Below, in pieces: positions 4,690 through 5,231 of a stretch of DNA of 35,726 nt. The translations under genes were made by a program, and so were the position numbers. Numbering within the stretch: the stretch's first letter is position 1; the number at the start of each line of letters is the position of its first letter. The notes under the pieces were generated by a model. That model saw only the letters and a program-made list of their open reading frames with translations. It was not told where the DNA came from and did no database searches. Source of the stretch: an uncultured Gammaproteobacteria bacterium (lineage in GTDB: Bacteria > Patescibacteriota > Microgenomatia > UBA8517); NCBI GenBank assembly GCA_965231135.1, contig OZ246419.1:147028-182753 (forward strand). Direction: 5' to 3'.

Positions 4690-4974
4690 ATGAAAAAATT
4701 AAATGGATTTAAACAAATTTTGAATGAGACTACTGACTTGATGGTTGAAATGGATGGTAGGTTTACGCGAGCAGAAGCAACTGCCTTGGCTTTTCCAACT
4801 GCAATTAGACAACTCTGGAGTTTGATGGGTTCTGAAATTGGTGGAGAAAAAAGAATTGCTAATGAAGTTTTTGGAATTTCTTATCGAGAATTTGTTGCTG
4901 AATGTGATAGAAGGAAAGATTTGGTGGAGAACTCTAGAGCAATGGGAGCAGCCAAAGAAAGGTTTGGTAATTAA
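4690..4974 (+). CDS. Hypothetical protein, 94 aa (first ORF inside the groESL operon)
   Basis: ATG 1 nt after the groES stop; stop 2 nt before the next ATG. Aligns by eye with the next ORF. Confidence 0.8.
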   Translation: MKKLNGFKQILNETTDLMVEMDGRFTRAEATALAFPTAIRQLWSLMGSEIGGEKRIANEVFGISYREFVAECDRRKDLVENSRAMGAAKERFGN

Positions 4975-4976
4975 TT

Positions 4977-5231
4977 ATGGCAAGAATAGAAGGATTTAGA
5001 GAAAAGTTTGTACCTGAAAGGCAAAAATTTATAGATTTGGGTTATTCTGGTCCAGTTGCTAGTGCTAATGCTGCTTTTAGAGTGATGCAAGGTGCAGAAA
5101 GAGAAGCCTATGATAAAGGTATTAAGGATATAAGTTTTTGGGAAGATTGTTTGCGAAGAGAATATTTAATAGCTCAATCTGTTCCATTTGCTAATTATTG
5201 GAAAGAAAAAAGAGAGAAAGGGATAGAATAA
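4977..5231 (+). CDS. Hypothetical protein, 84 aa (second ORF inside the groESL operon)
   Basis: Stop is 1 nt before the groEL ATG. Apparent paralog of 4690..4974. Confidence 0.8.

Follow-up and report, generated by a model that had tools for sequence, protein, structure and literature searches.

The genes groES and groEL are commonly counted among the most conserved gene pairs of bacteria, and each is generally essential. Why, then, should two small genes lie between them in the stretch of bacterial DNA analyzed here (35,726 nucleotides, called the window throughout)? Our best explanation, to which we give a probability of roughly 58%, is that these genes, ORF94 and ORF84, are lineage-restricted passengers of the groESL operon, sitting in a slot on which small genes have landed recurrently.

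The layout of the locus is exactly the one given in a preliminary description made from the sequence: groES (Cpn10, 99 aa; 4389-4688; Pfam PF00166, E 6.7e-23), ORF94 (94 aa; 4690-4974), ORF84 (84 aa; 4977-5231) and groEL (Cpn60, 541 aa; 5233-6858; Pfam PF00118, E 2.8e-69) follow one another on the + strand. The stop-start junctions, all on that strand, read TAA-T-ATG with a 1-nt gap between groES and ORF94 (4686-4692), TAA-TT-ATG with a 2-nt gap between ORF94 and ORF84 (4972-4979), and again TAA-T-ATG with a 1-nt gap between ORF84 and groEL (5229-5235), and the two ends of the insert do therefore have TAATATG in common, as had been noted. We considered this string as a target-site duplication and rejected it as specific evidence of one. 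With 7 copies in the window, where 8.6 are expected, it is not over-represented, and it also lies at another likely gene junction, on the - strand (34350-34356). This chance frequency, together with the copy at another gene junction, implies that TAATATG is an ordinary coupling junction and carries no special mark.

The concern that the junctions might reflect a faulty assembly is settled by two independent Logan assemblies from different runs (SRR12170510 and SRR12170514), which are 100% identical to the window over the locus and exclude a misassembly or chimera. There is no variation over the locus among these three assemblies, and hence none from which to compute dN/dS. The groEL protein is 70-77% identical to its ~10 closest homologues, which include MAGs labelled Woesebacteria and Microgenomates; judged by this similarity, the host is a Microgenomates-class Patescibacterium. 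We also observed an 18-nt direct repeat, 17/18 identical, with one copy in groES (4597-4614, TTTATAAAAAATGGGGAG) and the other in groEL (5348-5365, TTGATAAAAAATGGGGAG), and a KKWG motif encoded by near-identical DNA in groES (YKKWGG) and groEL (DKKWGA). The repeat is a possible recombination substrate, or a coincidence.

The anatomy of the locus bears on how the pair would be expressed. In a consensus scan, the sole + strand promoter candidate ahead of the operon is of sigma-70-like type; it lies upstream of groES (4348-4376), reads TTGACT-17 nt-TAAATT and has a TG preceding its second hexamer. The groES upstream region (4308-4388) contains this site with its extended -10, but neither a CIRCE element nor an inverted repeat. 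The same kind of scan found no promoter- or terminator-like site on the + strand inside 4690-5231, in agreement with the preliminary description. With neither a promoter-like nor a terminator-like site of their own, ORF94 and ORF84 most likely depend on the groES promoter for transcription, and the arrangement of the genes makes a single groES-ORF94-ORF84-groEL mRNA the most likely transcript. The 1-2 nt gaps suggest that the two ORFs are most likely translated by stop-start coupling or re-initiation; a Shine-Dalgarno-like GAAAGGGA lies in the 3' end of ORF84, centred ~10-12 nt upstream of the groEL ATG. Stop-start coupling would tie the synthesis of ORF94 and ORF84 to that of the chaperonin. 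The pair had also been proposed to be heat inducible. This idea is unsupported, because the CIRCE element (TTAGCACTC-N9-GAGTGCTAA) has no match within 3 mismatches anywhere in the window, and the region upstream of groES (4290-4400) has no inverted repeat.

Several lines of intrinsic evidence (codons, tiling and structural models) lead us to conclude that ORF94 and ORF84 are real genes. The two ATG-started ORFs fill the whole 543-bp spacer, leaving gaps of 1-2 nt; when this spacer was shuffled, 1.2% of the shuffles contained 84 or more codons in a row without a stop, and 0.4% contained 94 or more. A codon model trained on 20 long ORFs of the window gives ORF94 a score of 0.325 bits/codon and ORF84 one of 0.287, both within the distribution of real 90-codon windows that served as reference (0.309+/-0.09 bits/codon), and for each gene the five other frames score below the annotated one. 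By codon position, G+C in the two ORFs peaks at position 1 and is lowest at position 3, a pattern that groES and groEL also show, and the G+C and codon usage of the insert are native to the window. A single frameshifted gene was rejected as an explanation of the two ORFs: beyond the ORF94/ORF84 junction, each frame runs into a stop after a few codons at most.

The encoded proteins are soluble and near-neutral, without a transmembrane segment (ORF94, 10.6 kDa, pI 7.9; ORF84, 9.8 kDa, pI 7.8), and each has 15 K+R, 14 D+E, one Cys and no His. Single-sequence AF2 modeling, which may be over-confident on helical proteins, places helices at residues 2-21, 27-46, 52-60 and 65-92 of ORF94 (pLDDT 79.3, pTM 0.64) and at residues 7-20, 25-46, 52-68 and 71-81 of ORF84 (pLDDT 73.9, pTM 0.58). 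Both are thus confidently predicted to be four-helix, all-alpha proteins.

A third small ORF, ORF63 (63 aa; 6901-7092, +), directly follows groEL, and there is no + strand terminator-like site between the two. ORF63 is missing in the closest relatives, where a LytR_C-like gene follows groEL almost directly, and its codon score of 0.088 bits/codon falls under the 5th percentile for real genes, so that the ORF may be young or spurious.

Are ORF94 and ORF84 copies of one another? They had been aligned by eye in two ungapped blocks and called apparent paralogues. Both blocks exist as described, and each reaches nominal significance. In-register alignment of residues 2-33 scores +14, as against -28.8+/-11.4 in shuffles (p=4e-4); this score is reached by 0.5% of 595 real N-terminus pairs, and with 35 other N-termini neither protein does better than -6. 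The C-terminal block (residues 62-82 of ORF94 and 48-68 of ORF84), which contains each protein's single Cys, has 8/21 identities (p=0.016 by shuffling, P=0.019 by hhalign). In the DNA, codons 2-10 of the two genes have 17/27 bases in common, more than either has with any of 34 control gene starts. The proteins as a whole do not bear out the relationship to the same extent: BLASTP finds no alignment at E<=100, the Smith-Waterman score is non-significant (p=0.12), and global alignment over the whole length gives z=3.7 when the initial Met is not fixed and z=2.4 when it is, a value that 6/189 control pairs involving unrelated small proteins also reach. Because the blocks were picked by eye, we regard paralogy as plausible rather than demonstrated; the evidence is suggestive, and we put the odds at about even or slightly better.

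The search for relatives elsewhere leads to the conclusion that the pair is undescribed, with no family in any library searched. Pfam (at E<=1 and E<=10), PHROGs, NCBIfam and PADLOC contain no match for either ORF, and Rfam gives no RNA element at E<=1. Among 5.8 billion clusters searched by word index, each ORF recovers itself alone. An exhaustive HMMER search of 1.84 billion representative proteins, performed with ORF94 as the only query, yielded no true homolog. Its two non-self matches were both rejected: P0003 is a low-complexity, satellite-like repeat translation, with a score summed over 9 repeats, and P0004 is a phage tail-fibre repeat protein, with a score summed over 5. These two exemplify repeat-inflated false positives, in which five to nine weak repeats are added together. 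For ORF84 the search comprised the word-indexed and pattern-seeded methods; the pattern-seeded scans returned nothing for ORF84 in metagenome, viral or genome contigs, and nothing for ORF94 in viral contigs. Foldseek searches of the PDB with both models, and of BFVD with that of ORF94, gave nothing at E<0.5, and generic helical bundles only. A WXG100/ESAT-6-like pair was also considered and rejected, as there is no WxG motif (ORF94 has W43-S-L-M-G and ORF84 has W55-E-D) and no PF06013 match. Finally, a full-text search of the literature turned up no account of genes located between the two chaperonin genes.

To place the insertion among its relatives, we compared the window with 80 loci from GTDB species representatives, each containing one of the groEL genes closest to that of the window. 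ORF94 and ORF84 are missing from all 80, and in 71 of them the groES-groEL gap is non-coding. In the ~10 closest relatives this gap is 5-64 nt; six loci (L007, L010, L019, L036, L040 and L041) have exactly TAAT-ATG between groES and groEL, and the nearest relatives also have the same flanks, an SBP gene upstream and a LytR_C-like gene downstream. The relatives' junction implies that the window differs from them by a precise 543-bp insert, which recreates the junction at both of its ends. Among the non-Patescibacteria loci of a second scan that have a groES match directly upstream, the gaps were no longer than about 190 nt, with the exception of one gap of 368 nt, which has no ORF over 43 aa. 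There is also a marginal hint of where the insert may have come from. Codons 2-10 of ORF84 agree with the 5' end of groEL at 14-15/27 bases, where the 34 control gene starts reach at most 11-13; this likeness, rank 1 of 35, would fit capture of the groEL start followed by tandem duplication.

The slot itself is occupied in other lineages. The other nine of the 80 loci (L052, L054, L059, L060, L073, L074, L077, L079 and L080), several of them labelled Daviesbacteria, have one to three ORFs between groES and groEL, which are on the same strand, encode 63-230 aa and have tight junctions. BLASTP, global z-scores and hhalign reveal no homology of these occupants to ORF94 or ORF84, and most of the occupants are also unrelated to each other. 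An N-terminal motif that seemed by eye to be common to them, MA-x-[IT]-x-x-E-[IT]-[RK], was dropped after it gave no significant alignments. The 115-aa ORF of L074 has no relative in other GTDB species, and searches of metagenomes with P0010, another slot ORF, and of genomes with the L074 ORF found the queries themselves or nothing.

One group of occupants does form a family, which we call family A. It is found in Daviesbacteria-type MAGs, its members are 128-167 aa long without a Pfam domain, and every member found sits between Cpn10 and Cpn60: in L060 (2486-2989), in L073 as two tandem copies (1843-2229 and 2241-2693; mutual E 2e-6), in L077 (2393-2800) and, through a profile search, in L161 (3001-3408) and L162 (329-736). 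The family A dN/dS is 0.11-0.13, compared with 0.05-0.09 for groES in the same genomes, which implies that genes embedded in the slot can be kept by selection. In L077 and L161, family A is followed by a conserved partner ORF of 63-64 aa, with a dN/dS of 0.06. The family A profile does not extend to the window pair: hhalign gives a probability of 0.5% for ORF94 and 0.1% for ORF84.

Two further loci appear to retain traces of how slots are filled. In L080, a hybrid mini-ORF of 15 codons (MAKILKFDDLMAILE, then a stop; 2645-2692) lies between two inserted ORFs and consists of the first eight codons of groEL joined to the last codons of groES at a KFD (AAATTTGA) microhomology. As read from its sequence, this is the scar expected from unequal recombination joining two single-insert groESL operons. 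In L079, the inserted ORF is Cys-rich, encodes 230 aa (2307-2999), has weak matches to HNH-endonuclease PHROGs (E 2e-4) and opens with the first seven codons of groEL, MAKILKF; the groEL gene proper (from 3001) starts with ATT after a duplicated stretch of 35 nt. This suggests a homing-endonuclease-like insertion into the groEL start. Together, these putative recombination scars offer a concrete mechanism for the formation of gene arrays in the slot.

These observations can be combined in a model of how ORF94 and ORF84 came to be where they are. In an ancestral operon of the form groES-TAAT-ATG-groEL, an insertion would have hit the stop-start junction precisely. Probably one gene was inserted first and then duplicated in tandem to give ORF94 and ORF84; we propose a duplication because the paralogy signal, though weak, is consistent, and because the slot of L073 contains an evident tandem pair. 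Transcription of ORF94 and ORF84 would start at the groES promoter, and their translation would proceed by coupling or re-initiation. Once in place, such passengers may be retained for two reasons: the site gives strong expression, and an imprecise deletion would endanger the translation of groEL. More generally, the insertions of other small ORFs in sister lineages imply that the slot seems to collect new small genes, and the groES-groEL junction of Microgenomates may accordingly be described as a site of recurrent landing and retention, with a fast turnover of its small genes. Among the roles that the preliminary description had listed for the pair, a cargo using the operon is the best match to this model.

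The strongest competitor is that ORF94 and ORF84 are a chaperonin accessory, an adaptor or an obligate client, possibly as a heterodimer, and that their place in the operon ensures a fixed stoichiometry. This reading, which we consider unlikely, draws on the exact placement and tight coupling of the pair within groESL, on the independent filling of the slot in other Microgenomates, on the confinement of family A to the slot under purifying selection, and on the close match of the two proteins in size, charge and helix pattern. It sits poorly, however, with the nature of the proteins. They have no likeness to any co-chaperone family; Pfam Cpn10 (PF00166) matches the true groES alone and neither ORF at E<=10; and the predicted all-alpha fold is unlike that of GroES or Gp31. 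Moreover, the occupants of the slot are mostly unrelated between lineages, whereas a conserved cofactor should not vary in this way, the closest relatives have no insert at all, and the orphan ORF63, just outside the pair after groEL, suggests a general accretion around the operon. The accessory or client role put forward earlier thus had a positional basis which the proteins themselves do not reinforce, and we saw no evidence of a dedicated co-chaperonin role for either. We favor the passenger reading because the predicted fold is all-alpha, the occupants vary and the closest relatives are insert-free. It is nevertheless a default: the repeated independent acquisition of slot genes and the purifying selection on family A would fit a chaperonin-linked function equally well.

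A broader version of the chaperonin-linked idea, which we hold to be rather doubtful, is that the groES-groEL junction of Microgenomates serves specifically to house small helical partners of the chaperonin that evolve rapidly. These would be substrate adaptors, modifiers of the lid or cavity, or obligate clients, and ORF94 with ORF84 would be one heterodimeric example. If this were true, the turnover of occupants would record how reduced and likely host-dependent cells adapt their minimal proteostasis system.

Could the pair instead regulate the operon that contains it? Small helix-turn-helix proteins might autoregulate groESL in place of the absent HrcA-CIRCE control. In a PDB sequence search, residues 25-80 of ORF94 are colinear with residues 10-67 of Rv0078, a TetR-family protein, and the block GI....F..[ED]C.RR..L, present in both ORFs, seems by eye to resemble the TetR recognition-helix motif; the lack of a CIRCE element would leave room for such a regulator. 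Yet the Rv0078 match has an E of ~1 and is interrupted in the turn by a gap of 3 residues, and the identification of ORF94 as a TetR N-domain is confirmed neither by Pfam, in which TetR_N (PF00440) and other HTH models are silent for both ORFs even at E<=10, nor by Foldseek, which finds no regulator at E<0.5. With no operator-like inverted repeat upstream of groES, autoregulation is improbable.

Equally hard to sustain is the proposal that a toxin-antitoxin, defence or selfish-element cargo pair has landed in the operon. Two small co-directional genes of 94 and 84 aa, 2 nt apart, have the right look, their insertion is lineage-specific, and an HNH-like ORF of mobile-element type occupies the same site in L079. 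Within the insert, though, there is no endonuclease, integrase or transposase domain (Pfam, PHROGs), no toxin or antitoxin domain (Pfam, NCBIfam, PADLOC, PHROGs) and nothing that PADLOC recognizes as defence. The top-ranked fold match is a HEPN toxin, at E 1.2, and ORF94 has no histidine. Neither within the pair nor directly ahead of it did the consensus scan find a sigma-70-like site; the codon usage and G+C of the pair are native, and no viral relatives were found. Least probable of all is that 4690-5231 is an enlarged non-coding spacer with two chance open frames: neither ORF has a homolog that we could find, but the tiling of the spacer, the rarity of such long frames in shuffles, the codon scores, the G+C by codon position and the confident AF2 models all speak for genes.

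How does the locus compare with known systems? It has in common with the canonical groESL operon the gene order, the strand, a single upstream promoter candidate and the TAAT-ATG junction of its close relatives, and differs from it by two extra genes (543 bp) between the partners and by the lack of CIRCE. The nearest parallel is with the slot ORFs of Daviesbacteria type, which are annotated as hypothetical (for example PHE48_00580, Q7R97_04870 and Q7R97_04875). These lie in the same slot, on the same strand and with tight junctions, and like the window pair they are small and lack domain matches; in L073 they include tandem paralogs. They differ in belonging to another lineage, in resembling ORF94 and ORF84 neither in sequence nor in profile, and in the purifying selection seen on family A.

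Comparison with phage-encoded modulators is less close. T4 Gp31 is a small GroES-like beta protein that is encoded by a phage and functionally linked to GroEL, whereas ORF94 and ORF84 are predicted to be all-alpha, match neither Cpn10 nor any PHROG and have no viral relatives; nor do their models match, in AF2 or Foldseek, the Cpn10 beta-barrel with its mobile loop. Classical morons are prophage genes, usually with their own promoter and terminator. Passengers of the moron type resemble the window pair in being small orphans, and the pair has no regulatory signals of its own, so that its expression presumably comes from the host operon; unlike morons, it sits in a core essential operon, with native composition and no prophage context. 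Genes nested between groES and groEL were absent from the loci of other phyla that we sampled, and they recur in one ultra-small, uncultured class. A recurrent slot of this kind would be either an unrecognised layer of chaperonin biology or a clean natural example of a gene nursery, in which new small genes become expressed by riding on an essential operon.
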